Below are positions 13,390-63,724 of a DNA stretch of 64,000 bases, piece after piece. Origin of the DNA: a virus. Under the pieces are notes generated by a model, which did not search any database, had not been told where the DNA came from, and saw nothing but the letters and a program-made list of their open reading frames with translations. The stretch is from positions 32,001 through 96,000 of the IMG/VR virus record IMGVR_UViG_3300027969_000058, one strand, 5' to 3'. Numbering within the stretch: position 1 is the first letter of the stretch; every line of letters starts with the position of its first letter. Made by a program: the position numbers and the translations under genes.

Positions 13390-13921
13390 TTCCTAATACT
13401 TTCATTAATTTAATTGCCCATTCAAATGCAACACGGGCTTCGTCGCCAAGGTCGTCTGTAAGCTCTGCACGAATGGCTGCTTTTAAATTATGTGCATCCT
13501 TGAATTCGTAGAACTTACCAGAGCCTGGGCATTTTTTAGCAATGATCTGTCCGCCAAATAAATCGCCCATATGACGGCAGTATAGGTGTGCCTTAACTAA
13601 GTGTTTACGAGAGTCGTCGTAATTTAGTGCTAACAAATACTGGTAGTATTCAATGGTTGCAGGCAGCCATCTAAGTTGATGGTGCGGCCCAACTAATTCT
13701 ATACAGTCTTGATATATCTTATGTGTACGTTCAATGTCTGGTAAGTTTTTTAACATACCTTGACTATTTGCCGCAGTTTCAATGCCGTTGTATACTAATA
13801 CCATTTGCCAAAGATAGTTAGCATACTCTTCTTTAGAAAAGGTTCCGCCAACTAACTTTTTAGCAAATAAAGTTTCTTCTGCTTTTTGATGTAGATCGTG
13901 TGTAATGTCTCGTAAGCTCAT
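13382..13921 (-). CDS. hemO: Heme oxygenase
   Basis: Proximal His in LRDITHDLHQKAE; distal helix HLYCRHMGDLFGGQ. Confidence 0.92.
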   Translation of the reverse strand: MSLRDITHDLHQKAEETLFAKKLVGGTFSKEEYANYLWQMVLVYNGIETAANSQGMLKNLPDIERTHKIYQDCIELVGPHHQLRWLPATIEYYQYLLALNYDDSRKHLVKAHLYCRHMGDLFGGQIIAKKCPGSGKFYEFKDAHNLKAAIRAELTDDLGDEARVAFEWAIKLMKVLGNE

Positions 13922-14220
13922 TCTTCTTCCATTTTAATTTGGAGTGGGAAACCACTTGCTCGGGCAAGCTGGGTAGCTTCGACTGCTTTTACTTCTGCAA
14001 TTTCGAAACTGTAAACTCCAGCAATTCCACTACCAGTACTATGTATCTGTATTGTAATATCTTTAGCTGTTTCTTGAGTGTGCTTAAAAATATCGGTTAA
14101 GATTCCAACTACAAAATCCATAGGAGTAGTATCGTCGTTGATGAGAACTACTTTCCAACGTTTAGGTTCTTGAATCTTTTGTTTGATTTTATCGTCAATT
14201 TGAATTTCAGATGTAGGCAT
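13918..14220 (-). CDS. clpS: ATP-dependent Clp protease adaptor ClpS
   Basis: KVVLINDDTTPMDFVV..L...F, IH..G.GIAGVY..EIAE.K, FPL motifs. Confidence 0.95.
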   Translation of the reverse strand: MPTSEIQIDDKIKQKIQEPKRWKVVLINDDTTPMDFVVGILTDIFKHTQETAKDITIQIHSTGSGIAGVYSFEIAEVKAVEATQLARASGFPLQIKMEEE

Positions 14221-14235
14221 AGTTATACTCTCTTT

Positions 14236-14270
14236 AAAAAGGGAGAAGTTGCCTCCTCCCGTATTATTTA
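14236..14270 (-). terminator. Terminator after hsp20 overlapped by a late TAAATA promoter
   Basis: TAAATA-ATAC-GGGAGGAG-GCAA-CTTCTCCC-TTTTT. Confidence 0.7.
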
Positions 14271-14273
14271 CAT

Positions 14274-14708
14274 TTATTTTACTTCAATTCTTCGAGGCTT
14301 AAGAGCGTCGGGAATTATAAGTGTAAGTTTAATATGAAGGATGCCGTTAGTCAACAATACGTCGCCCACTTCCATATACTGCGGAATAGTAAAGGCTCTT
14401 TCAAAGTTTCTTGCGGCGAGGCCTCGATGTATGTATTGAGCATCACTGTTTTCTATTTCAGGCTTGTAACCCTTAATAATTAACTGATCCTGGTCAACCT
14501 CGACTGATATATCAGGCTTGTCAAATCCTGCAACTGCAATCTCAATTTCGTAGTGTGTATCGTCAAATTTGAGTATATTGAACGGAGGGTAATTGATGTT
14601 GTTACCAATTCCTTTTGATTCGATGTTATTGAAAATACGATCAAATCCGATCAATGCTCTACTTAAATGGGCAAGAGCTGCCGCATCAATAGTTCTTAAT
14701 TGTGTCAT
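14274..14708 (-). CDS. Small heat-shock protein Hsp20 (IbpA-like)
   Basis: NYPPFNI, IEIAVAGF, YIHRGLAARNFERAF, NGIL.I.L, PRRIEV. Confidence 0.95.
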   Translation of the reverse strand: MTQLRTIDAAALAHLSRALIGFDRIFNNIESKGIGNNINYPPFNILKFDDTHYEIEIAVAGFDKPDISVEVDQDQLIIKGYKPEIENSDAQYIHRGLAARNFERAFTIPQYMEVGDVLLTNGILHIKLTLIIPDALKPRRIEVK

Positions 14709-14760
14709 TTTATTTCTCCTTAATAAGCAAGAACTGCGTAGGGCCCCGAAGGCGCCCTAC
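14709..14760 (-). promoter_or_regulatory. ROSE-like RNA thermometer, hsp20 5' UTR
   Basis: TTCTTGCT pairs with AGGAGAA with a bulged G (the U-U-G-C-U ROSE motif opposite the SD), preceded by a GC-rich UUCG hairpin. Confidence 0.75.
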
Positions 14761-14775
14761 TTTAAAAATACTATC

Positions 14776-16695
14776 TTATTTTCTATCTTTAAAGATTTCT
14801 TCAAACTCTGCGTTTGTTTCAGCGGTGGTAGGTGTCTTACCTTCGTTTTTACTATTTTGTAAATCACCACGGACTTTCATGATTGGTTCTGCTATTTTTA
14901 CAAGTTCCGTAGCCGCTTTATTAATTACATCGGTATCTTCACCTGCTAACGCTTCTTCAACTGCTGTTACACCTGCAAGGAATGCATCTCTATCTTCCTG
15001 AGTGATTTTATCTTTAAACTCTTCACTTTCTTCAACGTCTTTAAGATCAGATTTTAGACTGTTAACCAATGCTTCGGCTTGGTTTCGCTCTTCAATAAGA
15101 GTTCGAAGTTTTTTATCTGACTCTGCATTAGCTTCAGCATCTTGTACCATACGCTCGATTTCTTCTGGTGTAAGACCGCTGTTACCTTGGATGGTAATTT
15201 TGTTTTCTTTACCAGTTAGTTGATCTTTAGCAGATACATGCATAATACCATTAGCATCAATATCGAGTGTTACTTCAACTTGTGGCTGGCCTCTACGGCT
15301 TGGCGTTGGGATCCCTTCAAGATTAAACTCGCCTAACAATTTGTTATACTGAGTAAACTCACGTTCTCCCTGGAAACATCTAATAGTAACAGCCTGTTGA
15401 TTATCTTCAGCAGTTGTAAAATTCTGGCTTGTCTTAGTTGGGATAGTGGAGTTTTTAGCAATTAGCTTTGCCATCACGCCACCTTGGGTTTCAATACCAA
15501 GACTCAACGGAGTAACGTCTAATAGCAATACATCATTACGATCGCCTTTTAATACTGCGCCCTGGATTGCCGCGCCTGCCGCCACAGCTTCGTCTGGATT
15601 AACGTCTTTGCGTGGAGCCTTGCCAAATAGCTTTTCAACAGCTTCTTGCACCTTGGGCATACGTGTCATACCACCAACAAGAATAACATCACTGATGTCA
15701 GATGCTTGTAAGCCTGCGTCTGCTAATGCTGTACGGCATGGAGCCAAAGATCTCTGAATCAATGCATCTACTAAACTTTCAAATTTAGATCGGCTAATAG
15801 TAACATTTAAGTGCTTAGGTCCTGTGGCGTCAGCTGTGATATATGGTAAATTCACTGATGTGCTCTGTGTACTTGACAATTCAATCTTGGCTTTTTCAGC
15901 GGCTTCTTTCAAACGCTGTAATGCCAACATATCCTTAGTTAAGTCGATGCCTTGTTCTTTCTTGAACTCATCAACGATGTAATCCATAATACGTTGGTCA
16001 AAGTCTTCGCCGCCAAGGAATGTATCACCATTGGTAGACATTACTTCAATTTGTTTGTCGCCCTCAACTTCTGAAATTTCAATAATAGAAATATCAAATG
16101 TTCCGCCGCCAAGATCATAAACTGCAATCTTGCAGTCTGTTTTTTCTTGTTTGTCAACACCATAGGCAAGTGCGGCCGCTGTTGGCTCGTTGATAATACG
16201 CAGAACGTCAAGTCCTGCAATTTTGCCAGCATCTTTTGTTGCCTGTCTCTGGCTATCATTAAAGTATGCAGGAACAGTAATAACTGCTTCAGTTACTGCA
16301 TAACCAAGATAGTCTTCTGCAGTCTGTTTCATTTTACGTAAAACTTCCGCTGAGATTTGTGGCGGTGCTAATTCTTTATCATTAACCTTAACCCATGCAT
16401 CGCCGTTTTCAGCTTCTATAATAGTGTATGGCATTAGGCCAATATCTTTCTGTACAGCTTCTTCTTTGAATTTACGACCAATTAAACGCTTTGATGCGTA
16501 GATTGTGTTTTTTGGGTTAGTGACTGCTTGTCGTTTTGCTGTTGCACCTACAAGAATTTCCGTATCTGTATATGCAATGATTGAGGGTGTTGTACGTGCG
16601 CCTTCGCTATTTTCAATAACTTTAGTAACGCCATTTTCAATAATGGCTACACACGAATTTGTTGTACCGAGATCGATACCGATGACTTTGCTCAT
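14776..16695 (-). CDS. dnaK: Chaperone DnaK (Hsp70)
   Basis: [40 protein letters not shown]; full length. Confidence 0.98.
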
Positions 16696-16755: not shown

Positions 16756-17340
16756 TTATCTTTTTCCACTTAACGGTGTGATTAATGTACCGTCAAATTT
16801 TGTAGTGCCTTGTAGTGTTTTAAACACATTCTGCACTCCTACTGCTTGATTCCACGCATCTTCAAGAGCATGGTGTTTTAGTACGGGAGGCCTGTTAGGA
16901 TTGATACCAATATCAAACAGTGTACGGGTATCACGAACTTCCCAAAAACTCCACGGAATTGCTTTGCCGATTTTACGAAAAATATGCTCACAAATAACAA
17001 TATCAAATGTTGCACCGTGGCTCCAAACTCGTTTGGCTCCCCAACAGAATTTATAAAGTTGATGCATAGCGTCTACTATATCAACTCTATCAGTTTCTCC
17101 AAATGCTTCATCTTGGGCTTCTTTGCTTTGATTAGCCCACCAAGCAATTGTATCGTCGTTGGTGACTAAGCCTATTTTGTCGCAACTATCTAAATCAACT
17201 CTTGTATAGAACTTTGTACATTTTGGATCATTAACATCATCACCGAACGGATCAAACTTAACAGCGCCAATTGTAAGAATGGCAGCATCTGGGGATGTTG
17301 CCAAAGTTTCCAAGTCAATCATAATATCTGTATTTGCCAT
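16756..17340 (-). CDS. DEDDh 3'-5' exo(ribo)nuclease, Rv2179c-like
   Basis: MIDLETL, WSHGATFD, RDTRT, HHALEDA. Confidence 0.88.
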   Translation of the reverse strand: MANTDIMIDLETLATSPDAAILTIGAVKFDPFGDDVNDPKCTKFYTRVDLDSCDKIGLVTNDDTIAWWANQSKEAQDEAFGETDRVDIVDAMHQLYKFCWGAKRVWSHGATFDIVICEHIFRKIGKAIPWSFWEVRDTRTLFDIGINPNRPPVLKHHALEDAWNQAVGVQNVFKTLQGTTKFDGTLITPLSGKR

Positions 17341-42980: not shown

Positions 42981-45900
42981 TTATCCTATCCAAATCTGCT
43001 TAGAAGATCCCGAACCTGCTATCACTCGTACTTCGCCAGACTCACCGCCCAACTTCAACGATGCAGGTTCATTCGAGTACTCTTGTTTGAACAGTGTATA
43101 GCCCTTGGTGAAACTGTAGCCCATAATATCACCAACGTGATTTACAGGATAGTACATTCGAGTTACACCAAGATTGTCAATTAGATCAAGATCTACATAT
43201 GAACTATTGATGTCACTTCTACTGCTCTGTGTTAGATAATCAGCAGTAATGTTAATTGTAGGATCTTGAACTATGTTAGATACTATGGTGTTGCTGGCTT
43301 CAGCCATCAAGTCTGACACAGTGACATTGCTCACTGCCATAGTCATACTTGTTGCCACTTCTGCACCTAACTGATTGACTGAGAACACTTCAACAAAGTT
43401 GAATATCTGCTCAATGGCAGTGTCAATGTTGTAAGTAACAAACGGTATGTCATTGAAGTTGTACTTGACAGATGTACTGAAAATAGTAATCACTGCCAAT
43501 ACTGCATCATTGACATTGTTACTGATAATAGTATTAGATGCTACACTGCTCAGTTCGTTATCGCTTGTTGATGCAACTGAGATAATAACTGCCACTTGAA
43601 CATCAGCATCGAACACCAACGCTGTGGTATCAACGAAGTTGAATATTTGGACAATGGCTTCTTCGGCAACTAACTCAACAAACTGTACAGTTTCAACGTT
43701 ACTGGTTATCTCATTGCTGACAATGTCTACTACAGCCAAGTTAGTTGTGTCAGTGTATGAGTATACTACTGCTACTTGTACATCAGCGTCAACTTCATTA
43801 TTTGAAACATCAACGACATTGAATGATTGTATGACTATGTCTTCAGCAACTAACTCAACAAACTGTACAGTTTCAACATTGCTGGTTATTTCAGTGCTGA
43901 CAATGTCAACCACAGCAAGGTTAGCACTATCGTCATAGGCATATACTATTGATACTTGTACTTCGGCTGCTATTTCATTATCTGAAATATTAACAACATT
44001 GTATGATTGTATGACTATGTCTTCAGCAACTAACTCAACAAACTGTACAGTTTCAACATCGCTGGTTATTTCAGTGCTGACAATGTCTACTACAGCAAGG
44101 ACGGCACTATCAACTACATTAACTGCTCTGCTGATCAATACAGTAGCATCTATCTCACTGTCGGAAGTATCAACATAGTTGAATATCAGTTGAATTAGAT
44201 CTTCTGCGGCAACTTCTACGTCAGCATCAGAAACAACAAAACTTGTTATGGCGTTATCGCCTGTTGCACCAATGTCGGCAATGTATCCAAATTCTGCGCC
44301 GAGGTTGTGTATCTGTACAATGCCAAGGTCTGTTACGTTGGTATTATCTAACAACAGGCCTGTACCAGTGACATATGGTCCATCAGTTGGGCCATTTAGT
44401 GCATCTGATACAGATATTGTTATTGTATAAGAACTGTCTGGCTGTTCTTCTACAACTATATCACTGATAGTTCCATAATAGACAAACGGTGAGCCGTCAA
44501 TTAACAATCGCTGGCCACGGTTTGGAGCAAATACTTTATCTTCTATGGCTTTGAGCAGTGCGGCCACATCGCCAGGTTGTCCATCACTTCTGTCTTCACC
44601 TGCCAGCACAACGTCTGCCGTGTCACCAATCTTGGCATATTCGAACGGCACTTGTGGTACTGCCAACCGTACTTTGATGGCTTTGTCGTAGAGATCCAGA
44701 TCAGCGGATTCTGGATAATTGAATATTCGTTTCTCAATTGCTGTTGCAGCCAACTCGAAGAACTGTATAGTTTCTACATTGCTGGTTATCTCATTGCTGA
44801 CAATGTCTACTACAGCCAATACAGCAGTGTCATAATATACATGTACTAATTTTACTACTACATCTGCATCTAATTCAACATCAACAGTGTTATCAACAAC
44901 GAATATCTGCTGGATAGTATCTGTAGCAGCCAATTCAAAGAACTGTACAGTATCAACGTTGCTGGTTATCTCGTTACTGACAATATCTACCAAGGCCAAT
45001 ACAGCAGTGTCATCAATGCTGAATGACTTGCTGATTACCACTGTGGCATCAATTTCTAAGGCTGTACTATCAACATAGTTAAATCGTTGTTCAATGGCTT
45101 CTGTAGCAGCAAGATCTAAGAATGAACTGTCTTGTACATTGCTGGTTATCTCATTGCTGACAATATCTACTACAGCCAACACAGCATTGTCACTGAACGA
45201 GTAGGCATTTGATATAACAACAGTAGATTCAATTTCTAAATCAGTTGTGTCTACATAATTGAATCGCTGTTCAATTGCTTCATTGACACCCATGTCAAGT
45301 GCTATGGTATTGTCAAGTTCAGTTATGTACTCAATGCTCTGTATGTCTACCAATGCCAACACAGCACTGTCGTCAACTGCATAGATTGCCGATGTAGTAA
45401 ATGTTGATGTTATCTCAATGTCTGCTGAATCGGCAATATTGGATACTTTTATAATGGCGTCAGTAGCAGTTAAGTCTAAGAATGAACTGTCTTGTACGTT
45501 ACTTGTGTATTCAATGCTCTGTATGTCTACTAATGCCAACACAGCACTATCAGCAAATACATATGCTAATGATATTACAGTTGTTGCGGCTATTTCTGTG
45601 TTGGCACTGTCAACATAATTAAATCTCTGCTCAACTGCTTCTGTAGCGGCAAGATCCAAGAATGAACTGTCTTGAACAGTGCTGGTTATCTCATTGCTGA
45701 CAATATCTACTACAGCCAACACAGCACTATCTGCAAATACATATGCTAATGAAACTACCGTTGTGGCATCAATTTCTAATGCTGTACTATCAACATAGTT
45801 GAATCTCTGCTCAACTGCTTCTGTAGCGGCAAGATCCAAGAATGAACTGTCTTGTACATTGCTTGTGTATTCAATACTCTGTATATCTACCAGGGCCAAT

Positions 45901-48900
45901 ACAGCACTGTCAACATATATGAACAACTGGCTAATTACCACTGTAGATTCAATCTCTACAGCAGCATTGTCAACATAGTTGAATCTCTGTTCAATAGCAG
46001 TAGTAGCAGCCAACTCTATGAATGAACTATCTTGAACGTTACTTGTGTATTCAATGCTCTGTATGTCTACCAGTGCCAACACAGCACTATCAGCAAATAC
46101 ATACGCTAATGATATTACAGTTGTGGCTGCTATTTCAACAGCAATTGTATCAGCATAACTAACTTTCTGTTCAATAACAGTAGTGGCAGTTAAGTCTAAG
46201 AATGAACTGTCTTCAATGTTACTGATGTATTCGATACTGTGAATATCTACAACAGCAAGGGTAGCACTATCAGCAAATACATATGCCAATGATATAACAG
46301 TTGTTGCGTCTATCTCTACCGCAGTTGTATCAGCATAATTGAATCGCTGTTCAATAGCAGTGGTAGCGGCAAGTTCAAGTCCTACAGTATTATCAAGTTC
46401 AGTTATGTACTCAATTGATTGTATATCTACAACAGCAAGATTGGCGCTGTCAACATAGTTGAATCTTTGTTTGACTGTGTCAGTGGCTGTGATCTCTACA
46501 GCAGTAGTATCAATATAACTAATCTTCTGTTCAATAGCAGTGGTAGCGGCGAGATCTAAGAATGAACTATCTTGAACGTTACTCGAGTAGGCAATACTCT
46601 GTATATCTACCAAGGCCAATACAGCACTGCTGTTAATTGTAACTATTCGTGTTACTACATCAGTAGCGGCAAATTCACAGAACTCTATATCATCAAAATT
46701 ACGTTTAGATGATGTAGATACAATATCAACTAATGCCAATACAGCACTGTCTGCAATAGTAACTACTCGCTTGACTGCGGCAGTGGCTGTGATCTCAAGT
46801 GCTAACGTATTGGCAATCACACTGGCTAACGAAGTAGCATCACTATCAGCAATCACCACTGTGGCCGTGCTATCAAAGACAAAACGTTGTTCAACAACAG
46901 TTGTTGCTGTTAACTCAAGTGCTACGTTATTATTAACGTTGCTGGCTATCTCAACACTTTGTATATCAACAATGGCTAAGTTGGCTGTGTTAACAACTCC
47001 ACGTGTTGAACTTGTTACAGAACTATCAGATACTGCTAATGCAGCTTCTGTAGCATAGACTCTTATTTTACTTACTACATCAGTAGCCGCAAGTTCAATT
47101 GCTACATCATTATCAACGTTGCTGGCTATTTCATTGCTGACAATATCTACCAGAGCCAACACAGCAGTGCTATTAATAGCACGGATGCGTTTAACAGTGG
47201 TTGTTGCCGCAATCTCAAGTTCTACTGTGTTGTCAATATTTCTCTTTACTTCAGTGCTTTGAATATCAACTACAGCCAATACCGCAGTTTCATCCAGTAC
47301 AACAATCTGTTTGACTGTTGAGGTTGCGTTAAGTTCAAGATCAGTTACGCTGACTAATACAAATAGTTTAATTACTACAGCCGATGCCGCAATTTCAATA
47401 GCAACTGTATCATCAATGACAGTTACATATTTGACTACGTCAGTAACACCCATTTCAAGTGCTATGGTATTATCAAGTTCAGTGATGTACTCAATTGATT
47501 GTATGTCAACAACAGCCAATACCGCAGTGCTGTTAATTGCATAAACGTGTTTGATTACATCTGTAACTACAAATTCACTGAACTCTACATCATTGATATT
47601 ATGTTTAGATGACGTAGATACAATATCAACTAATGCCAATGTGACAGAGTCGTCAAGTACAACAATTTGTTTAACCGCTGAAGTAATACCAAGTTCTATT
47701 GATCCAACTGTGATACGTGACAGCGATCGTTTCTCAACTGCTGTTGCTGTAATTTCTACAGCAATCGTATCATCAATAACAGTTACGTACTTGACTACGT
47801 CAGTGACACCTATTTCAAGTGCTACGGTGTTGTCAAGTTCAGTGATGTACTCGATACTTTGTATATCAACTACAGCCAATACAGCAGTGCTATTGATTAC
47901 TGATACTTGTTTGATTACATCAGTGATTATGAATTCACAGAATTCTACATCATTAATGTTGTGTTTAGATGACGTAGATACAATGTCTACCAATGCTAAC
48001 TCAGCATCGTCATCAACAATGAATATCTGTTGAATTGCTGAAGTAATACCAAGTTCTATTGATCCAACTGTGATACGTGACAGCGATCGTTTCTCAACTG
48101 CTGATGCTGTAACCTCAAGTGCTGTTGTTTCAACTGACGTAACCACATGGGCAATAACATCAGTTACAGCAACTTCCAGTGCTATGGTATTGTCAATCTC
48201 TGTTGAGTATTCAATGCTCTGTATATCTACCAGGGCCAACACGGCAGTGGCAATACGTGCAAATACTCGTTTCTCAACTGCGGTTGCTGTAATCTCAAGT
48301 GCTGTTGTTTCAACTGATGTAACCACATAGGCAACGGCATCAGTAACACCCATTTCAAGTGCTATGGTATTATCAAGTTCAGTGATGTACTCAATTGATT
48401 GTACGTCAACAACAGCCAATACCGCAGTGCTGACAATTGCGTAAGCATGTTTGATTACATCAGTAACTTCGAATTCAAAGAATTCTACATCGGCAAAGTT
48501 GCGTTTAGATGACGTAGATACAATATCAACTAATGCCAATACAGCATCGTCGTCAACAATGAATCTCTGCTGTATTAATGAAGTTGCAGTAATTTCAAGT
48601 GGTGCTGTGGCAATACGTGCAAATACTCGTTTCTCAACTGTGGTTGCCGCAATCTCAAGTGCTGTTGTTTCAACTGATTTGAATACTGCGGTTACCACAT
48701 CAGTAACAGCAAGTTCAAGTGCTATGGTATTATCAAGTTCAGTGATGTACTCAATTGATTGTATATCAACCAGAGCCAATACCGCAGTATCGTCAAATAC
48801 TCTAACATACTTAACTACTTCGTTTCTATTAACTTCTAAAGGTATTGTAGCAACATTGTTACTGACTATGCTGTTAGATGTTACACCAAATATCTTGTAC

Positions 48901-51851
48901 GGACGCGGTGTTATTACAACACTATTAGAAACTATGCTGTTTGATGCCGTAGCGCCAAGTTCAACACTGCCTGTTGAACTACGTGCAAATACACGTTTCT
49001 CAACTGCTGTTGCCGCTAACTCAATGAATACCGCATTACCAGTGAATACTATAGTTCTGCTAATTACAGATGTTACACCAAAGGCCAATGCCACTGTGTT
49101 ATTAACATTGCTGGCTATCTCAACTGATTGTATATCAACAACAGCAAGGTTGGCAGTGGTTACAACAGCAAATGATCTCTTAACAACTGATGTTGCTTCA
49201 ATTTCAAGCGCAACGGTATTCTCTTTAACAAATCTAACCTTGGTAGCATCAATGTCTACTACTGCCAAGTTGGCAGTGCTTACAACATTGACTATCTGCT
49301 TGACAGTGGTTGTGGCAGCAATCTCATTATTGAAAGTGCTGGACAACGTAAACGACTTACTTACTTGAGTTGTTGCCGATAGGTTAACTGCTGCCGTAGC
49401 AGTGTTCTCACTTCTTATGGTATTGGCAGTTGTGCCGGCAACATTCAGTGCAGTTGTTGTGATACGTTCATAGCCACGTGTTACTACCGATGTGGCAGCA
49501 ACTTCAATTGCACCAACAGTGATGCGAGACATTGAACGTCTTTCAAGTGCGGTGGCTGCAATCTCAAGTGCTAATGTATTCTCTCTAACAAATCTAACTT
49601 TAGTAGCATCAATATCTACCACTGCCAAGTTGGCTGTACTTGCAACATTAACTATGCGTTTGAATGTAGTTGTGGCAGCAATCTCATTGTTAACTGTGCT
49701 TGATACTACATATGGTTTAATTACAATAGCACTGGCTGATACTACCAATGCTGTTGTAGTCGAAACAACGACTTTTCTTTGAACTGCGGTAGTAGCACTG
49801 ATTGCCAACGCCGCTGTAGAAGCAACTTTGACTATACGCTTGTTTGTAGAAGTGGCAGCAATTTCCAACGGCAATACTGTGATACGTGATAGCGATCGTC
49901 TTTCAACTGAACTGGCTGCGATTTCAATAGGTGCTGTTGAACTACGTGCAAATGCTCGTTTTACTACAGAAGTTGCTGCTACTTGCAATGCGGTTGTAGT
50001 GACAAATGCTGTTGTTTTCTTAATTGTGAACGTGGCAGCAATTTCAATTGGTGCTGTTGCACTACGTGCATATACTCGTTTTATTACAGAAGTGGCTGCA
50101 ATTTCAAGTGCTAACGTATTTGCTCTTGCAAGTATAACTTTGGTAGCATCAATATCTACTACAGCAAGATTGGCTGCGCTTACAACGTTGACTATCTGTT
50201 TAAACTCACTTGCGGCAGTGATTTCTAACGGGCAAACAGTAGCATTTAAGAAGATTGGACTTGGCAGTATGTCTACTGATTCTGCTGTGATAAACAACTT
50301 TGCTTTTGTTACAAGGGCAAAGAATGGTTGAGGATATTCTGAGGCTGTGTAATGTAACTCTGTAATGGCCGCAGTTGATATAGGACCAACTGGAATTGGC
50401 ACACCACGTTCAGGGTCTGCACTTGGGAACGCATAGTGTACTTCATCACATCTAATGGTCAGTACTGCTGGATCTGTTACATTTAGCCTTACTGCATCAC
50501 GTTTAACTACAACATCTACACTGTCAATAACATACTGTAGTGTTAGGTCAACTGGAACAATAAATCTTCTGCGCTCAACAAATACAGCATCAATGTTTAA
50601 TGGAGCAGGGTCTCTGTTCCAATGATTGAACTGATGGCCAATGAACTGCTCTTGGGCAATTGAGTTAACTGATATAGGACCAACAGGAACGCCTGGACTT
50701 CGTTGTGCATCCGAACCTTGGAACAAGTAATGTAATTCAGTAACTGCTACATTGAGAGTAATTGTATCAACAACATTTAATCTTACTGCTTCACGATAGA
50801 CTGCTGTGCCCGTTAATCCAAGTTGTAAAGGTGCCAGTTCACTATTGAATCCTCTTATACTCTCTTGAACAGTTGCATCACCAATAATGAACGGAGCAGG
50901 ATCTCTATTCCAATGGACGTTTTGATAGCCAATGAACTGCTCTTGGGCAATTGAGTTAACTGATATAGGACCAAATGGTATACCTGGACTTATTGTTCTG
51001 TCTGGGTCAGCAAAGAAATAGTTTAGTTCATTGACTACCAGATCAAGAGCAATTGTATCGATAACATTTAATCTAATGGCATCTCGTTTATAGGCAAAGA
51101 AAGTTACACCAATTTGTAAAGGTGCTACTTCGTAATTGAATCCTCTTACACGTTTTTCAACCGCAGAGCCGCCTATTTCTAATTCTGCAGGTTCTCTATT
51201 CCAACGAACATTTTGATATCCAATGAACTGTTCTTGTGCAATAGAGTTAATTGATACGGGACCAAATGGTATACCTGGACTGATTGTTCTATCTGGATCA
51301 GCAAAGAAGTAATGTAATTCAGTAAATTGAACATTGAGAGCAATGGTATCATTGACTCTTAATCTAATGGCTTCACGATAAACAGCAGTGCCAGTTAGAT
51401 TAATTTGTAAAGGTGCAACTTCGTAATTGTATCCTTTTACACGTTTTTCAACAGCAGATGCGCCAATAACGAATTCTGCAGGATCTCTATTCCAATGTGT
51501 GTTCTGATATCCAATGAATTGCTCATCACCGAGAGTGTTAACTGATATTGGTCCGAGAGGAATACCTGGAGCAACTGTTATTTGCTCCGGAGTTAGTTTA
51601 TTAAACTCGTAGGCAACGCCGGACTCGCCAGCATACATTACTGCTGGAGAGATATAAACGTGTCTATTGGAAGTTGTAGCAGTAACGTTTACTACAAGAG
51701 GCGCGGATTCTGTAAAGAACTCACGTAGTGCGTAACGGACTGTAACTACGTCCGTGCCGCCTATTTCTAATTCTGCAAAATAAACAGTAAAGGCATCTGG
51801 TTCTGTAGCTAAAGGAGATTCAGCAACTGTGCTTTGTGATATCGCTGACAC
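42981..51851 (-). CDS. Giant (2956 aa) beta-repeat fibre-like virion protein
   Basis: AGGAGG SD before GTG; V/I/A/T/D/S-rich tandem repeats; lies in the tail gene block. Confidence 0.85.
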   Translation of the reverse strand: MSAISQSTVAESPLATEPDAFTVYFAELEIGGTDVVTVRYALREFFTESAPLVVNVTATTSNRHVYISPAVMYAGESGVAYEFNKLTPEQITVAPGIPLGPISVNTLGDEQFIGYQNTHWNRDPAEFVIGASAVEKRVKGYNYEVAPLQINLTGTAVYREAIRLRVNDTIALNVQFTELHYFFADPDRTISPGIPFGPVSINSIAQEQFIGYQNVRWNREPAELEIGGSAVEKRVRGFNYEVAPLQIGVTFFAYKRDAIRLNVIDTIALDLVVNELNYFFADPDRTISPGIPFGPISVNSIAQEQFIGYQNVHWNRDPAPFIIGDATVQESIRGFNSELAPLQLGLTGTAVYREAVRLNVVDTITLNVAVTELHYLFQGSDAQRSPGVPVGPISVNSIAQEQFIGHQFNHWNRDPAPLNIDAVFVERRRFIVPVDLTLQYVIDSVDVVVKRDAVRLNVTDPAVLTIRCDEVHYAFPSADPERGVPIPVGPISTAAITELHYTASEYPQPFFALVTKAKLFITAESVDILPSPIFLNATVCPLEITAASEFKQIVNVVSAANLAVVDIDATKVILARANTLALEIAATSVIKRVYARSATAPIEIAATFTIKKTTAFVTTTALQVAATSVVKRAFARSSTAPIEIAASSVERRSLSRITVLPLEIAATSTNKRIVKVASTAALAISATTAVQRKVVVSTTTALVVSASAIVIKPYVVSSTVNNEIAATTTFKRIVNVASTANLAVVDIDATKVRFVRENTLALEIAATALERRSMSRITVGAIEVAATSVVTRGYERITTTALNVAGTTANTIRSENTATAAVNLSATTQVSKSFTLSSTFNNEIAATTTVKQIVNVVSTANLAVVDIDATKVRFVKENTVALEIEATSVVKRSFAVVTTANLAVVDIQSVEIASNVNNTVALAFGVTSVISRTIVFTGNAVFIELAATAVEKRVFARSSTGSVELGATASNSIVSNSVVITPRPYKIFGVTSNSIVSNNVATIPLEVNRNEVVKYVRVFDDTAVLALVDIQSIEYITELDNTIALELAVTDVVTAVFKSVETTALEIAATTVEKRVFARIATAPLEITATSLIQQRFIVDDDAVLALVDIVSTSSKRNFADVEFFEFEVTDVIKHAYAIVSTAVLAVVDVQSIEYITELDNTIALEMGVTDAVAYVVTSVETTALEITATAVEKRVFARIATAVLALVDIQSIEYSTEIDNTIALEVAVTDVIAHVVTSVETTALEVTASAVEKRSLSRITVGSIELGITSAIQQIFIVDDDAELALVDIVSTSSKHNINDVEFCEFIITDVIKQVSVINSTAVLAVVDIQSIEYITELDNTVALEIGVTDVVKYVTVIDDTIAVEITATAVEKRSLSRITVGSIELGITSAVKQIVVLDDSVTLALVDIVSTSSKHNINDVEFSEFVVTDVIKHVYAINSTAVLAVVDIQSIEYITELDNTIALEMGVTDVVKYVTVIDDTVAIEIAASAVVIKLFVLVSVTDLELNATSTVKQIVVLDETAVLAVVDIQSTEVKRNIDNTVELEIAATTTVKRIRAINSTAVLALVDIVSNEIASNVDNDVAIELAATDVVSKIRVYATEAALAVSDSSVTSSTRGVVNTANLAIVDIQSVEIASNVNNNVALELTATTVVEQRFVFDSTATVVIADSDATSLASVIANTLALEITATAAVKRVVTIADSAVLALVDIVSTSSKRNFDDIEFCEFAATDVVTRIVTINSSAVLALVDIQSIAYSSNVQDSSFLDLAATTAIEQKISYIDTTAVEITATDTVKQRFNYVDSANLAVVDIQSIEYITELDNTVGLELAATTAIEQRFNYADTTAVEIDATTVISLAYVFADSATLAVVDIHSIEYISNIEDSSFLDLTATTVIEQKVSYADTIAVEIAATTVISLAYVFADSAVLALVDIQSIEYTSNVQDSSFIELAATTAIEQRFNYVDNAAVEIESTVVISQLFIYVDSAVLALVDIQSIEYTSNVQDSSFLDLAATEAVEQRFNYVDSTALEIDATTVVSLAYVFADSAVLAVVDIVSNEITSTVQDSSFLDLAATEAVEQRFNYVDSANTEIAATTVISLAYVFADSAVLALVDIQSIEYTSNVQDSSFLDLTATDAIIKVSNIADSADIEITSTFTTSAIYAVDDSAVLALVDIQSIEYITELDNTIALDMGVNEAIEQRFNYVDTTDLEIESTVVISNAYSFSDNAVLAVVDIVSNEITSNVQDSSFLDLAATEAIEQRFNYVDSTALEIDATVVISKSFSIDDTAVLALVDIVSNEITSNVDTVQFFELAATDTIQQIFVVDNTVDVELDADVVVKLVHVYYDTAVLAVVDIVSNEITSNVETIQFFELAATAIEKRIFNYPESADLDLYDKAIKVRLAVPQVPFEYAKIGDTADVVLAGEDRSDGQPGDVAALLKAIEDKVFAPNRGQRLLIDGSPFVYYGTISDIVVEEQPDSSYTITISVSDALNGPTDGPYVTGTGLLLDNTNVTDLGIVQIHNLGAEFGYIADIGATGDNAITSFVVSDADVEVAAEDLIQLIFNYVDTSDSEIDATVLISRAVNVVDSAVLAVVDIVSTEITSDVETVQFVELVAEDIVIQSYNVVNISDNEIAAEVQVSIVYAYDDSANLAVVDIVSTEITSNVETVQFVELVAEDIVIQSFNVVDVSNNEVDADVQVAVVYSYTDTTNLAVVDIVSNEITSNVETVQFVELVAEEAIVQIFNFVDTTALVFDADVQVAVIISVASTSDNELSSVASNTIISNNVNDAVLAVITIFSTSVKYNFNDIPFVTYNIDTAIEQIFNFVEVFSVNQLGAEVATSMTMAVSNVTVSDLMAEASNTIVSNIVQDPTINITADYLTQSSRSDINSSYVDLDLIDNLGVTRMYYPVNHVGDIMGYSFTKGYTLFKQEYSNEPASLKLGGESGEVRVIAGSGSSKQIWIG
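43300..50250 (-). repeat. Degenerate 20-aa tandem units, often in 40/60-aa super-repeats
   Basis: e.g. ADSAVLALVDIQSIEYTSNV/QDSSFLDLAATEAVEQRFNY/VDSTALEIDATTVVSLAYVF; boundaries approximate. Confidence 0.85.
50380..51580 (-). repeat. About four 97-aa (291-nt) repeats
   Basis: PGIPFGPISVNSIAQEQFIGYQN.HWNRDPA recurs; DNA copies at ~50968 and ~51259 are 291 nt apart. Confidence 0.85.
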
Positions 51852-51866
51852 AGCAGCCTACCTCCT

Positions 51867-54800
51867 TTATGCTTGTGATTCAGACCATGTAATACGAGCC
51901 GAACAGTTAAATGGTACTGTAGCGTTAACCTCTGAAGTGTTAATAACTTTAATTGCCAGTGTTAGTACGTCAGGTCCATTTGGAAACACTCCGTCGCCGC
52001 CTAAGATACAATTACCCATGTCAGTAATCTGGCTTAGATCCACGTTGGTAACATTGTTCAAACGTTTAGTACCAACACCACCAGATTGTCCACCACCTTG
52101 TGCTCTAAAACTGAATATCTTAGTACCACCAACTACAGTGTCTCCCACTGTGTGGTTAACCAAGTTACTCAATGAAGGTGATGTAACTTTCTGCCAGTTA
52201 ATATTACTTAAACTCGGATTTAGAATCAAGTTAATTTCACAATCATGTGTCAACACCATACCAGCCTGCTGTAACTGCAATTGCATACGGTTGATAATAT
52301 CGCGTTCACCAATGTTACCAGTAACACCGTTGTCAACTGACGGAGACAATCGAATACTAATCAATGGAATATCACTAAACAATAGACCGGCTGTGTCACC
52401 AGCGGCCGGTGTACCAATGTTAACCACTACACCACTGCCAACAACTGGATAGCCTGTTGGGAACGAGTTCTGCGTTGCATAGTATATGCGCACAAGATAG
52501 TTACTGCCTGAATACTGCGCTTGGTTAACCGTCTGTCCTTTCAGTTGATTGTCAGCCGTGTATAGCGGAGTACCAGTACTAAACTTGGCAGCATCACTTG
52601 TGGCAAAACTTAACTGTACAAACCAATCATAATTACGCTTGGTTTGATTGTAAACATAAATCAACGAACTGGCTTGGTTAGTTGTTGCTGTGGCAGTCTG
52701 TCCATTGGTAAATGTCAATGTATCGCTGGCAGCAGTAAACAAGTAGGCCTTGTCATCGTCAAATCTACCATCCATAATAACTGAAGTACCCCAGTGGAAT
52801 AGTTTAGGTTGATATGTTGCTACGCCTGTGTTTTCAACTTCGTAACGTGCAGGAATGTTACCAGAACGCATATAAGCCTCTGTTTCCTTGTTGTTATGAA
52901 TAAACTCATGTACATAGATCACGTGACCGTATGTGTCTTTAAATCCAAAGCGGATCTTACCAGCACCGTACCATGAATAGTCCATATAGGCCATCTGAAT
53001 CTTGGTCTTGTCAAGCAAGAAATTACTTGGTCCGTTGCCGTCGCAAATGTCAATGTTCCATTGACTTTGTGGTATTTTAAGATCGAAAGTCTTAGTAACA
53101 ATAACACCACTTGCTGATGCACCTTTGTACTTAGGCTGAATGATCATGTTGTCTTTACCAGTAATAGCAATGACCTTGTAAGTCTGTCCTCGTAGTACAA
53201 CTCTGTCGCCCGCCGCCACCTGTCCAACGAAGTTGGTGTTAGTGCCAAGAACTATGTTGCTATCCTTGCTGCAGGTAACCGTACCGCTTAACTGATTTGT
53301 ACTGTTTCTTCTTACTGCATACAGAACTTGTCCGTCAAAGGCAAAATAAAAACCGTTTTGGAAGTCAAACATACCGCAACGTGTTTCAGCGTTCTGCCAT
53401 CCGTCAATAGTGAATTGTATTGTGCCACCTGGGGAAATAGTTGTAGGAATATTGGCCAATGAATACTGGAAGGAGAATGCATCAAACACTTGACAAACAG
53501 TTTGGGAACCATTGTACTCGCCGGCTGATGAACCACTAACTGTAATTCTTGATCCTGCTGGTATACCATGTGGATATTTGGTAGTAATCAGTGCTGCCTT
53601 AGTTACTGACAATGCAGTCTTGGCTGCACCAATTGCTGTGGCAGCGGCCTGGATGCCGGCAGTGGCCCAAGCGTAAGTTGGTGCTGTCCGTGTGTAACTG
53701 GCAAGTCCTGCTGTAACACCCAGATTAACCACGTCTGTGGTAAGTTGTACAAGATTCTGTACAATGGTAGCATCACCGGAACTTGCATTATTACCAGTAG
53801 TTACCTGCGCTGTAACGTTACCAGCACTCCGTGTTACTGATGCACCTTGTACAATCTGTCCTACAATAACTTTCAGTCTGTTATAAGCAGCCACTGTGGC
53901 AACTTTGTGTGATGCGGCAATACCTGTAGTAGAACCATCGCCGTTACCCAGCGCATAGTCAAAGAATTTTGCCTGTGTATAGTTGGCAAAGTTTCCGCCA
54001 TACAATATGTCAAAGCAAAGAGCACGTACAGCATACTTAATGTCACGTGTACATTTTGCCACGTTGTGGTCTGCACTTGGATAAGTCACAGCAACATAGG
54101 CATTGATTTCATCTTCAATAAACGTCAAGTTGGCCAGCAATTTATCCTTGGCAGCAATTTGACTGGTAGTTGCTGTGCTGGGATTAGCAAATGTAGGATT
54201 GCTGGCCGCAGTTCTACCATTGGTCAAGCAGGTTGTTATCTCTGTGAAATAAGCATTGATTCTTGAGATAGCAGTGGCATCTGCAGCCACTTGCGTCAAT
54301 GCTAATATTTCTGCCTTGGCTCTTAGAATACGAGCAGTAACTACAGGACTCAAAAACTTTGAATTGGTTTCTGCAATACCATTAAACACACCAAAGTATG
54401 TTGAACCAGTGGCTATGTCATATTGAGCACCGTCAACAATGTAGCCAATGTCACGTTCGCACTTGACGTCTGTAATGGCTGCCATTGTTTCCACTGGAAT
54501 AGGTGGATTAAAGTTAATGGCCAAACTGATCTGAATACCTTTACCAGACTGGTAACGGAAATACTTACGTGTTTGACGCACAATTTGACTGTTTGGCGCT
54601 GTTCCTGCTTGTATTTCAACACCACCGTCGAATGGTCGGTGATTAGTAGCACCGTCAGGTCTTACGTAGACCTTAGTTGGAATTAAGTGTGTTGTAGTGG
54701 CCGCGGTAAATGTACAAGGCGTTGTCAATGCCAATGAAGTATCACTGACCACACTGCTGATTGTAAATGGTAACAATGAGCCTGGTGTTGAGTTATTGTT

Positions 54801-57800
54801 CTTGACATAGAAGATATCGCCTGGCTTGTAATAAGTCAGGAACAGACTGTCATCAGATCCTTTAACAACTGCACTACCGTTGGTAACTGCAACAGTACCA
54901 ATAGATGTGATCATACCATTTACTGTACTGCTGGTAAAGATGTGTGTACTTGTTGCCTGCGCACTCCAAGTTATGTCAATACCTGTACCGTTATTATAAT
55001 TGGCTATACTGCTGGCCAGTTTAATATAAGTTTCGTCTGCTAAGATTACATAGTATGTACTACCATTAGAGAAACCAGTAAAATCAGCGTTTCCGTTGTT
55101 ACTGTAAACAATTGGAGTACCAGCCGCCAAATAATGGCCGCCTGGAAACTTGAAAAAGTTGTTGGTATCTTGACTGAGTTTGACCAGCGATAGTGATTTC
55201 TTACCGGCTTTGAAAGCAAGGCCAAAGTCAAACGTATTTGAACTGGTTATTGCTGTCGCAGTATACACTCCGTCTAACGCACCAAACTGGTTGGTAACGT
55301 CCAACATTGCTATTGCGGCAGGGTCAGTATTGGTGTCAATTGTGCCGGCCATTGCACCTGCATGATTTGCACACACATAGTATAGTATATCAGGCGCATT
55401 AGTAGGAACTGCAAAAATCACTGTGCCACCTTGAGTACCGTTGTTGGTCACACCTGTAGCATAGGCGTCTGCTGTGCCTGATGTCTTTAGTGTTTTAATA
55501 TAGAATGGGTGGCCTGTTGCTGCCACTGTAAATGAATAGGTATAACCTTTCTTCAAATACAGTGTGGGATTAACCGTAGTTCCATGATTGATTACCCAGT
55601 TAGTACTTCCGTTGTTAGTAACCGTAAATGCTGACTGTCCTTGTGGGCCAGAAGTGCCTGTATCAGTAATGTCAATTTCAACGCCGGCTGTGGAATTTAA
55701 ACTAAATCTGTTTTCATCAACAACTTTTGCTTTATAATTCTGTCCAGATACCAATGATGGCAATGTCCAACCTGTGGCCAATGTGTCCATAATTTTCTTA
55801 TCTAAGTTTAATAGATACGTTGCATTGACTGTGATTGATGATGGAACACGAATCAAGAAACTCACAGTGATCATGTTGTAGCTAAAGTTGTACAAAAACG
55901 CATAGTATGTACTGTATGATGAAGTTTGACTATAGTATCCATATGGATCCCATGACTCTTTTCGTATCTTCATCTGTACATAGATAATTTGATCACGGCC
56001 GGCCTGTTGCCAGTATTGTGCAATACGTGTGTATCTCCAATCAGTTAACGTAGCAGTAGTAGTTGTATAGAACGGAGGTGTAGTGTTAATGTTGACCTGA
56101 TCAATACTATAACTGTACGATGAACTGTGGTTCATGTAGAAATACGTTTCAGCATATCTGTTTAAAGGATGCGCATGTAGTACAAGATAGTAGTCAATTT
56201 GTTTATCTTTTACATAGGTAGGCATGATAATGATATGACCTGAACTGGCCACGGATGTACCTCTACCAAAATCTTCTGCCTGCCCAGTATCCCATGGATG
56301 TCCTGGTGCATAACTTGGGTACCAGTAACCGTACTGATTATCATAAACACGACTGTAAAAACTCCAACCACCTTGGAAGTTGGTAATATCACTGGCAGCA
56401 CCGTATAAGAATGGCTGGCTGTTATTTGGTCCGTCCATGAACAGTTTGGCCGTTGAGCCTTGTGTGCTCAACCATGCGGCAATGCCTGACCCTATGATCT
56501 TATAGAATGTTTCAAAGTTAGTATTGCTACCAGTAAAACTAATTGCGCCCGAGGTAGTTGTTGGCAATACCGCACCGTTGTCTGCGGTAACGGTCAATTG
56601 ATTATCATCTACCAAGCCGTGTTTAGAAACATAGAAAGTGTTTCTTGTCAATCTATTTCTTGAACCAGCAAATGTGTAACTGCCGTTGGCAGCAGAAATT
56701 CTAACAGGAGTAGTGCCAGTTCTAATTCTAAATCTGGAGGCACTTACACGTTCAATGGTATAAGTTCCACCGGCCAATGTACTTGGTGTAAAGGAAGTAG
56801 AAAAATCACCTGCACCGTGTGTATAATAATAAATTGGTAATCCACTTGTGCTTAATGTTATGCTTTGTCCTGTGATAAATCCATGATTGGCGGCATAAAA
56901 ACTGTCATTTTCTGGATCGTCGTTCAATGGTACAAAGAACATCTCACCTCTGGAGAAGTACCAACTTGAGTTGAATGTATAGTAGTAGTGGTTGTTATAG
57001 TGAAGGATCTGCGTTTGGTTCCAAATCAACACGTTGTTTGATGCTGGTGACTTAAAGTTGTTGTTAGATGAATAACGTGTCCAATCTTCAACAAAGTTAT
57101 GACTCTTTGGATATGTAGTATGCGGATCAGTACCCATGTTACCACTGTAGGTAGTTGAGTAATAGACACCATAGTTGTAGAATAGGTAGTTATAGGCATT
57201 AACGAAGCCGTTGTTTGTGCCTTTAAAGTAGGGAACAAAATAATCTGGTGCACGGCCCATCAAACCAACATAGCCGCCTGAACCTGAGTAGGCGCTTTTA
57301 TAGAATGCTTGAGTCTGTAAGTCCCAACCTGAACCTGAACCATAGGCAGCAGAAGCAAAGGTAAAGTAGGCAGTGTTATCCCAGAATGGAGAGTAACTAC
57401 TGTAGATTTCATAGGCAATCATAAACTCGCCACGACCGCCGTTGTAGGTGCCTGCGTTTGAGAATACTATGGGTATGCCGGAGGTGGAACTTTTCAACTG
57501 GAACGTGTTGGCAGTGGGGTTAGTAACAAAGTAAAATTCTAAGTTGACTAACGGAGTGATTGGGCCATCAACGCCGGCTGGTTTGCTGTACAACAGTACA
57601 TCGTTTTCTCTCAGTTGGTGATTAACCCAAGTAATGGTACTGGAAGCCACTGACACTGCACTGGCATTGAATTTTAAATAATAGGCACCTTGAACTGCTC
57701 TGGTTTCTGTCAGTGTTAGATCAGGACTGATTGTGGCACTTTCAGTGTCTGTAAAATCTACATAAGGAAAGCCGTCAGGTGCAGTAGTGCCACCAGTTAC

Positions 57801-60682: not shown

Positions 60683-61882
60683 ATGATAGATAAACAACCA
60701 TTCGAAGCATTACTAAAAAACCTTAAAGATTCTGGCAAGTATCGTGTGTTTAACGATATTATGCGTGAAAACGGCAAGTTCCCCCAGGCCATATGGTATG
60801 GGCCATACGCTATAAAGAACATTGTAAACTGGTGCTCAAACGATTACTTGGGCATGGGTCAGCATAAGGTTGTTATAGATGCTATGCGTACAGCATTGGA
60901 CATGACAGGTGCTGGCTCAGGCGGTACTCGCAACATTGCAGGTACCAGTCACTATCACGTTGCGTTAGAACACGAGCTTGCAACACTGCATAAGAAAGAA
61001 CGGGCATTGTTATTCTCAAGTGCTTATGTGGCCAACGAGTGGACACTGATAGCACTGGCTAAGATCATTCCCAATATAGAATATATCAGCGACAGTAATA
61101 ATCACAACTCAATCATTGTGGGCATACAGCACAGTCGTGCAAAGAAAAGTATATTCAAACATAACGATATGCAGATGTTAGAGGAACTGTTGGAAGTCAG
61201 TGTGGCTGCAGGTAATAAACCCTGCATTGTATTTGAGTCAGTATACTCAATGGATGGCGATGTGGGCATGATCAAAGAGATATGTGACCTTGCTGATAAG
61301 TATGGTGCTATGACCTACATTGATGAAGTACATGCTGTGGGCCTGTATGGGGCAACAGGTGCAGGCAAAGTTGAGGAGTACGGGCTACAGGATCGTGTTG
61401 ACATAGTTAACGGTACACTTGGTAAAGCATTTGGAGTACAGGGCGGATACATTGCCTGTGACAGTATCGTAGCTGATGCTATCCGTAGTATTGCCGCTGG
61501 CTTTATCTTTACAACATCTATGAGTCCTGTAACCTGTGCTGGCGCACTGGCTGCTGTTAAGTACTTAAAAAGTCATGGTGAGCTACGTGAGCAACATCAA
61601 GACCGTGCCCGCAAGTTAAAATATAGATTGATCAAAGCTGGCATACCCGTTATGGCGTGTAGTACTACACACATTGTACCTGTGCTGGTTGGGGATGCTA
61701 AACGTGCCAAAGCAATGAGCGATGCATTGATTAACGATCACAACATCTATGTGCAGGCCATCAACTATCCCACAGTGGATGTGGGAACGGAGAGGTTGCG
61801 ATTTGCTCCCACTCCGTTTCACGATGATGGTATGATCGAAGACTTGGTTCAAGCCCTCGTCAAAGTGTTTAACACATACTGA
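60683..61882 (+). CDS. hemA: 5-aminolevulinate synthase (C4 pathway, PLP-dependent)
   Basis: [61 protein letters not shown]. Confidence 0.95.
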
Positions 61883-63004: not shown

Positions 63005-63724
63005 TTATTTGGATTTTTCTAACTTAGCAATGTAGTTGGCCATCATGTGATCAAACACACCAATATACTTTTGCCCTTTTGATCTGGCTCTCAATCTACT
63101 GCGAACCATATCTTTCACACGCTGCCACGGAGTTAGGTCTCTAAACTCTCCATGGAAGTTCATGTACTTGTGTGTGCCATGATGATCAAATCCCATTAGT
63201 CTAAATGGAACTTTGGTTACATCATCACAGTTGTTTTGTACTCTGTAATGCTCTATTGTTAAGCTCTTAACAAACTCTGCATTGCCAACTCTTGGCGAAC
63301 CAAATGTTACCAATGCTGTTACACGATCCTGCATACGACTGGCAGCGATTGTGGCCATGGCAGCACCAAGACTGTGTCCAGTTACATATACATTACCTGG
63401 ATTGTCTGCAAGTGCGGCAGTGATGCTGGGCCATAGTTTGTTTATTTCGCCTTTGAATCCTACGTGTACTTTGCCGCCACAGGCTTCAATGTTCTTACCT
63501 GACTTTAGGTCTGCCAACACATCTGACTTCTCAGTTACTTCAGTACCTCTAAATGACAGCACTGTAATAGTACCATTGGTTAACAAGTATGCCTGTGCTC
63601 CGTCTATGTCAAAGAACTCTACAATGGTATAGCCTAAGGCTTTAAACTTACTTTTAGAATCTTTGGGATTGTCATAGGTAGTTTGCGCTATGTTAGCAAA
63701 CTCTAATAGTAGTTCTGTTTTCAT
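63005..63724 (-). CDS. Class 3 lipase
   Basis: FRGTE, VHVGF, GHSLGAAMA, TFGSPRVG, DDVTKVP, terminal DH. Confidence 0.92.
   Translation of the reverse strand: MKTELLLEFANIAQTTYDNPKDSKSKFKALGYTIVEFFDIDGAQAYLLTNGTITVLSFRGTEVTEKSDVLADLKSGKNIEACGGKVHVGFKGEINKLWPSITAALADNPGNVYVTGHSLGAAMATIAASRMQDRVTALVTFGSPRVGNAEFVKSLTIEHYRVQNNCDDVTKVPFRLMGFDHHGTHKYMNFHGEFRDLTPWQRVKDMVRSRLRARSKGQKYIGVFDHMMANYIAKLEKSK

Follow-up and report, generated by a model that had tools for sequence, protein, structure and literature searches.

Two phycobiliprotein-type globin units in a phage virion protein are candidate bilin acceptors in a genome that also encodes a bilin pathway

The window analysed here comprises 64,000 nucleotides of the genome of an uncultured jumbo phage (positions 32,001 to 96,000 of IMG/VR record IMGVR_UViG_3300027969_000058), and harbours the gene of a virion structural protein of 2260 amino acids, named P0001. 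Residues 1395-1694 of P0001 are two tandem phycobiliprotein-type globin units, in which the Cys-x-Arg-Asp (CxRD) chromophore site is kept. The same contig possesses genes for the synthesis of bilins, and the virion domain is therefore presented as a concrete and testable candidate acceptor for phage bilin in viruses of non-photosynthetic bacteria. This interpretation is, overall, partly supported. New are the co-occurrence of the repeats and the bilin genes on one contig, and the presence of a soluble globin-nitroreductase fusion in the same phage.

P0001 matches the PHROG profile phrog_5838, annotated as 'virion structural protein', in five stretches, the best of which covers residues 1669-1944. 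Its homologues are cyanophage virion structural proteins, with 35-45% identity over one third of the length of P0001. A previous sequence-only reading of the window had described in this protein an Ala-rich helical insert with two motifs resembling a bilin attachment site. Both motifs were found in the 2260-residue open reading frame (ORF) at the expected codons, those of Cys1397 and Cys1533 (Table 1), and these are the only C.RD motifs in the whole of P0001. The insert is indeed rich in Ala, which makes up 15-21% of residues 1401-1700 vs 2-12% elsewhere, and it is helical in the confident AlphaFold model. A profile of the repeat unit detected exactly two units in the window. Among the closest two-unit modules (n=11, 37-55% identity), the first motif, at the site of Cys1397, is intact in all eleven, and the second, at the site of Cys1533, in nine, with Leu for Cys in the other two.

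Four independent tests, namely PDB search, Pfam, profile-profile comparison and structure, agree on the relation of this module to phycobiliproteins. The search of PDB sequences with the single insert gave phycocyanin alpha as the only match, with an E-value of 0.5. When the search was done with a profile of 126 two-unit segments (alignment A1), phycocyanin alpha accounted for 13 of the 14 best matches, including four of the top five (E 0.011-0.5), in an alignment over helices B to E, with KCxRD on Cys84, Arg86 and Asp87. By far the commonest Pfam match of the A1 members was PF00502, 'Phycobilisome protein' (37 out of 126, best E 2.4e-7); the second-commonest family matched five out of the 126. 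One relative of the repeat scored 24.2 bits against PF00502, above the curated cut-off of 22.2, over positions 72-154 (helix E to H). The comparison of A1 with ten real phycobiliproteins from one Synechococcus genome by hhalign gave E 2e-5 and a probability of 77% over 98 columns, spanning phycobiliprotein columns 35-145, with the module Cys on Cys84. HMMER and hhalign thus both align the second motif to the chromophore site of alpha-phycocyanin, as the sequence-only reading had proposed, and the likeness to the Cys84 site is real homology, not motif coincidence.

For the fold of the insert, structure prediction and profile-profile comparison with phycobiliproteins had been suggested, and a globin-type fold was found. 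The AlphaFold model from a single sequence was unusable (pLDDT 42). The model of the module obtained with the A1 alignment reached a pLDDT of 89.4 and a pTM of 0.89, and its comparison with 48,161 PDB chains by VIA-align gave phycobiliproteins as all of the top eight matches (allophycocyanin, phycoerythrin and ApcE, Z 11.7-14.5), with root-mean-square deviations down to 2.1 A (116 residues). The next ranks were taken by globin-coupled sensors and photocobilins. Foldseek gave a probability of 1.00 and TM 0.55-0.69 for phycoerythrin beta and ApcE. The stretch of the model that superposes on the whole globin domain of phycoerythrin, allophycocyanin and ApcE (model range 104-264) is composed of A/B-like helices from the end of unit 1, followed by the E-to-H helices of unit 2. 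In the predicted model the first CxRD helix comes directly after the upstream region and an A/B-like pair closes the module, and the two ends of the module may pack together in a permuted or nested arrangement. The units are phycobiliprotein-type globins and not antenna subunits. We have high confidence in the observation itself and in the homology of the module to phycobiliproteins.

The search of 1.8 billion representative proteins with phmmer, in which the single insert served as query, revealed 565 matches at E <= 0.001. Many of them are giants of 2000-6400 residues (the largest with 6382), with up to 30 matching stretches each. The best 150 of the 565 proteins contain 1364 C.RD motifs, 100-170 residues apart, and share the unit consensus F.Y[DN]..KC.RD.G.I.DA...D..YGGN..S..AG..Y. 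Each unit of these proteins has only one conserved Cys, and for this reason a disulfide role of the motif Cys was judged unlikely. When applied to 120 IMG/VR loci, retrieved by means of a back-translated motif pattern with at least 120 matching loci, a unit profile of 154 positions identified 733 units in 128 ORFs. To avoid circularity, the profile was rebuilt without the K-C-x-R-D columns. This motif-blind profile detected 1440 units, and CxRD is present immediately upstream in 1345 of them (93%); most of the units lacking it retain C..D or.RD. Units that keep CxRD are otherwise only ~20-30% identical. Among the bilin biosynthesis-associated globins (BBAGs), BBAG-2 maintains the fold without a CxRD motif (PMC10151467), and since the fold does not need the motif, its conservation points to a function.

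The module matches 33 phage records, and the best full-length homologues of P0001, MW202722.1 and S-BM3, are not among them; the module is therefore an insertion and is mobile among structural proteins. Cyanophage proteins hosting it are annotated as short tail fibre, tail fibre or gp7 baseplate wedge. The insert described by the sequence-only reading thus stands, but the emphasis on P0001 does not, as the insert is rather a two-unit module that is mobile and belongs to a very large family of phage repeats, and phages insert such modules into tail, baseplate and other virion proteins. In BFVD, the structural neighbours were tail and tail-fibre proteins of cyanophages together with proteins of uncultured Caudovirales, and an annotation as phycobiliprotein-like is absent from all of them. 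A related-locus search with the single insert as query gave no match, and our literature search found no paper on phycobiliprotein-like domains in phage fibres, virions or structural proteins. The same motif pattern gave 16 loci in 596 Gb of prokaryote genomes, of which 13 have real repeats, and all 13 sit in metagenome bins, including contigs of 194 kb and 335 kb that resemble phage genomes. The repeat family is restricted to phage or phage-like contigs. Repeat arrays in public 'bacterial' metagenome-assembled genomes were seen in L203 (PBPT01000016.1, 335 kb), L210 (JBJBBP010000001.1, 194 kb) and L213-L215 (Rhodobacteraceae Water_Bin34); by their size, these contigs look like phage genomes binned with cells.

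The window possesses the genes for 5-aminolevulinate (ALA) synthase, heme oxygenase and a ferredoxin-dependent bilin reductase (FDBR) that the sequence-only reading had named, and their matches to TIGR01821, PF01126 and PF05996 are all above the cut-offs. The nearest NCBIfam model of the reductase is PcyA, with an E-value of 1e-25, below the cut-off of that model. A related freshwater phage enzyme of this group is a true PcyA, with phycocyanobilin (PCB) as product (PMC11480375). For the enzyme of the window, 'PcyX', with phycoerythrobilin (PEB) as product, is an unverified candidate label vs PcyA and PCB. The ALAS-HemO-PcyA/X 'broken cassette' of phages has already been published (Wegner et al. 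2024, PMC11480375). There the purpose of hemO and the reductase in phages is called enigmatic and BBAGs are raised as one possibility, in agreement with the earlier statement that the acceptor of the bilin in non-cyanobacterial phages is unexplained.

An association of the repeats with bilin supply is supported across near-complete phage genomes, for which a co-occurrence check had been proposed together with the first description of the motifs. In the forward direction, the repeat-bearing records at least 90% complete (n=4) were scored for heme oxygenase, reductase and psbA. G012 (328 kb) and G035 (364 kb) harbour heme oxygenase and reductase and no psbA. G015 (258 kb, with terminal repeats) and G037 (186 kb) harbour psbA and neither heme oxygenase nor reductase, and the presence of psbA identifies them as cyanophages, whose hosts make bilins. 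All four near-complete carriers therefore have a bilin source. A lyase-like CpeT is also present in G037, and G024 (70% complete) likewise possesses psbA and CpeT. In the reverse direction, 383 viral contigs encode relatives of the reductase of the window, the best 80 of the 383 being 72-80% identical. Repeats were found in six out of six reductase-bearing records at least 59% complete (five further records and G035), and among reductase-bearing fragments the presence of repeats falls with contig size, as expected. In fragmentary repeat-bearing records (12-52% complete) neither FDBR, heme oxygenase nor psbA was detected, a result that is uninformative at such completeness.

The repeats are also distributed in line with light-dependent adsorption among the cyanophages compared. 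P-HM1 and P-HM2 show no adsorption in the dark and S-PM2 also needs light to adsorb, in contrast to P-SSM2 and P-SSP7, which adsorb in the dark (Liu et al., PMC6628666). The A1 profile has four matches in P-HM1, three in P-HM2 and nine in S-PM2, all of them in ORFs of 3340-4458 residues, and the search of the P-SSM2 and P-SSP7 genomes gave no matches. We treat this contrast as a lead rather than as a result.

A soluble protein of 372 residues is also encoded in this record, outside the window. Its N-terminal half matches the repeat profile (E 9.4e-17) and carries the motif FCRRD, and a nitroreductase domain (PF00881, E 5.5e-11) makes up the C-terminal half. The globin-nitroreductase fusion is common to ~22 protein clusters, and the motif is kept in 14 out of 15 aligned N-terminal fusions. 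One fusion relative (P0218) has the reverse domain order, and two independent fusion orders argue for a functional link; stand-alone nitroreductases (~217 residues) are commoner than the fusion. Because of this protein, the particle is not the sole candidate bilin acceptor in the phage. The view that the bilin is made for the phage's own particle is accordingly retained in part: CxRD repeats are associated with bilin supply, but the soluble fusion is an alternative candidate acceptor.

In the mechanism that we propose, ALA synthase would raise the heme supply during infection, heme oxygenase would open heme to biliverdin, and the bilin reductase would convert biliverdin to PEB or PCB. The bilin would be thioether-bound at Cys1397 and Cys1533, with Arg and Asp holding the propionates and pyrrole nitrogens in the manner of phycobiliproteins. 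Attachment would probably be lyase-free, similar to BBAG-1 and BBAG-3 globins and to ApcE, in which bilin attachment is autocatalytic. The chances that the virion module binds a bilin appear evenly balanced. More speculatively, the pigmented module could sense light and thereby gate adsorption or ejection, and would then not be an antenna. The virion would then be a biliprotein photoreceptor, in which light absorption by a bilin of the fibre or baseplate gates adsorption or DNA ejection. Phages of heterotrophs would obtain this bilin from their own ALAS-HemO-reductase set, and cyanophages from the host. We regard this extension as doubtful; if true, it would answer both why bilins are made in non-cyanobacterial phages and why some cyanophages adsorb only in the light, independently of host photosynthesis. 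Binding of a bilin by the module would make this the first pigment-bearing phage particle and a possible viral photoreceptor, and would provide a mechanistic lead for light-dependent cyanophage adsorption, a new branch of phycobiliprotein evolution and a new scaffold for bilin-based fluorescent tags.

Several observations weigh against a phycobiliprotein-like module that carries a bilin. The module of the window gives a weak match to PF00502 on unit 2 (module residues 143-168; 14.9 bits, E 0.026), below the cut-off of 22.2. The hhalign probability is 77% and not >95%, and helical models may reach Z ~13 by chance in structural comparisons. The six-frame search of the own record with PF00502 gave no match at E <= 10, and this search is the less sensitive one, since hmmscan of the module alone gives E 0.026. 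The association with bilin supply comes from few near-complete genomes of two or three lineages, in which the reductase bearers are mutually close relatives of a single lineage. Bilin genes do not require the repeats, as P-SSM2, which is known to carry bilin genes, is without them. The contrast in light-dependent adsorption involves five phages, two of which are near-identical. Of the eleven closest modules, two carry Leu at the position of the second Cys. No bilin lyase had been visible in the window, and a T-type or S-type lyase was not found in the whole 114.7-kb record either, which is ~33% complete. CXRD-bearing BBAG-1 and BBAG-3 globins attach bilins by themselves in E. coli, without a lyase (PMC10151467), and the absent lyase is therefore not a strong objection.

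A chance resemblance of the two motifs in an Ala-rich helical region would fit the results obtained with the single sequence (E 0.5 in the PDB search and pLDDT 42 for the model), but its probability is negligible, as it is ruled out by repeat-profile matches with E ~1e-20, the Pfam and hhalign statistics and the fold match. It is also conceivable that the units are a structural element only, in which an ancestral phycobiliprotein-like globin took on the role of a rigid helical spacer or hinge in fibres, with no chromophore, and CxRD was kept for packing or unit-unit contacts. Tandem arrays of up to ~30 units resemble a structural spacer, and the 10-30-unit arrays in giant fibre proteins, the movement of the module between different structural proteins, the lyase not found in the record and the change of Cys to Leu in some orthologous modules would all agree with such a role. 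However, structural repeats normally conserve core hydrophobics and glycines, not a polar Cys-x-Arg-Asp triad as in 93% of these units, and it is this triad that provides the ligands of the chromophore in the homologous phycobiliproteins. A spacer would moreover leave unexplained that a bilin source is always present in near-complete carriers, and we consider a purely structural role to be somewhat unlikely. The phage bilin pathway may instead serve a target other than the particle, such as the soluble fusion, a host photoreceptor, heme-iron release or general heme supply, and the virion domains would then bind nothing or a different ligand. The presumed role of cyanophage bilin genes in supplying the antennae of the host counts in favour of such a target, as do the fusion with FCRRD in the same record and its recurrence in ~22 clusters, in both domain orders and with the motif in 14 of 15. 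Heme supply, iron, phytochrome or BBAGs have been put forward in the literature as explanations of the cassette (PMC11480375). Nevertheless, a target outside the particle leaves unexplained both the conserved CxRD of the virion units and the presence of repeats in every sufficiently complete reductase-bearing relative. Particle and soluble acceptors are not mutually exclusive, and we regard the pathway serving solely a target outside the virion as improbable.

Both hemA and the genes starting with clpS had been described as following late-type TAAATA boxes. This agrees with the TAAATA 14 nt upstream of hemA, but is weak for clpS, where the box is located 50 nt upstream, before a terminator-like hairpin between hsp20 and clpS. 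The full TATAAATA is found upstream of the operon holding the virion gene. TAAATA is present upstream of 13 of the 57 genes, vs ~3% expected from strand density, and is for this reason of little discriminating value. The boxes would be compatible with late co-expression. Boxes of the type NTAAATAA, which are similar to T4 late promoters, constitute a candidate phage promoter motif. They are enriched upstream of hemA (60683) and of 13 out of 57 minus-strand genes (e.g. 6827, 23789, 34411, 36603 and 59442), and their distance from the start codon is often 7-14 nt or 30-43 nt.

Table 1. Coordinates of the features discussed; positions refer to the window unless another record is given.
Feature	Position	Strand	Basis
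Virion structural protein gene (P0001), 2260 aa	51867-58649	-	ORF and translation; phrog_5838 E 5.8e-181, phrog_1645 E 4.4e-49
Phycobiliprotein-like unit 1, residues 1395-1525, starts with KCERD	54075-54467	-	Repeat profile E 5.6e-20; helices 10-93 of model
Phycobiliprotein-like unit 2, residues 1531-1694, starts with KCTRD	53568-54059	-	Repeat profile E 4.2e-21
Stretch superposing on whole phycobiliprotein globin domain, residues ~1488-1648	53706-54188	-	VIA-align, hhalign
Cys1397 codon, candidate bilin-attachment site 1	54459-54461	-	Motif KCERDIGYIVD starting at residue 1396
Cys1533 codon, candidate bilin-attachment site 2, aligned to phycocyanin Cys84	54051-54053	-	Motif AKCTRDIKYAVRALCFDILYGG starting at residue 1531
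FDBR, PcyA/PcyX type	12709-13389	-	PF05996 E 1.1e-14, above cut-off
Heme oxygenase (hemO)	13382-13921	-	PF01126 E 4.2e-19, above cut-off
ClpS	13918-14220	-	
HSP20	14274-14708	-	
Full-length DnaK/Hsp70	14776-16695	-	E 4.4e-250
ALA synthase (hemA/alaS)	60683-61882	+	TIGR01821 571 bits vs cut-off 338.55; PF00155
Soluble globin-nitroreductase fusion, 372 aa, outside window, same record	G000:C1:8302-9420 = L201:1803-2921	+	Repeat profile, PF00881
P-HM2 gp7 baseplate wedge subunit, repeat-bearing	NC_015284.1 46318-59682		
S-PM2 p091 tail fibre protein, repeat-bearing	NC_006820.1 53491-63507		

Directly upstream of hemO-pcyA/X, a chaperone and proteolysis-adaptor cluster (13918-16695, minus strand) encodes ClpS, HSP20 and DnaK. 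P0001 further possesses a cupredoxin-like segment (residues ~1030-1110, 55320-55562, minus strand), in which GHPF ... C-x2-H-x4-M is a plausible pattern of type-1 copper ligands; its sole Pfam match, over profile positions 18-97 of 99, is PF00127 plastocyanin/azurin, sub-threshold with an E-value of 0.11. The ORF of 2956 residues that is located directly downstream of the virion gene (42981-51851, minus strand) has no PHROG match and no repeat units, and the PHROG scan of neighbouring genes gave no informative names. Other genes of the window encode an Rv2179c-like 3'-5' exoribonuclease (16756-17340, minus strand, E 1.4e-39) and a class 3 lipase (63005-63724, minus strand, E 2.6e-20).

Similar to the light-harvesting phycobiliproteins (CpcA/B, ApcA/B and CpeA/B; PF00502), the phage units have a globin-type fold without C/D helices and a KCxRD in helix E on Cys84, Arg86 and Asp87, and a hydrophobic residue at 92, Tyr97 and Gly102 are also common to both. 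In contrast, the N-terminal X-Y hairpin that builds the alpha/beta heterodimers is unmatched in the phage units, whose alignments to phycobiliproteins begin at ~residue 26-49 in most VIA chain ranges. Light-harvesting phycobiliproteins are free subunits of 17-20 kDa, whereas the phage units are tandem or nested inside giant virion proteins. An Asp at +14 is conserved in 99% of the phage units and is not a phycobiliprotein feature. In the core-membrane linker ApcE, one of the best structural matches by VIA-align (4xxi_A, Z 13.0; 7eyd, 9wg7 and 7sc7, Z 11.7-12.3), a phycobiliprotein domain is likewise built into a large protein of several domains. However, ApcE has one such domain, with the bilin at a different Cys, and is located in the phycobilisome, whereas the phage domains are part of a virion protein.

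The phage 'broken cassette' (PMC11480375) consists of the same three genes as in the window, in which hemO lies next to the reductase gene and alaS is found in another part of the contig. Unlike that work, which makes no mention of virion globins, a candidate acceptor is present here on the same contig. BBAG-1 and BBAG-3 (Rockwell et al. 2023, PMC10151467) are also phycobiliprotein paralogues outside photosynthesis with a CXRD motif, and the genomes harbouring them encode heme oxygenase and a PcyA-family reductase as well; in the phage, all of these are on the same contig. BBAGs are small and soluble, and their gene is located beside the reductase, whereas the phage domains belong to a virion protein of 2260 residues, encoded ~40 kb from hemO-pcyA/X.

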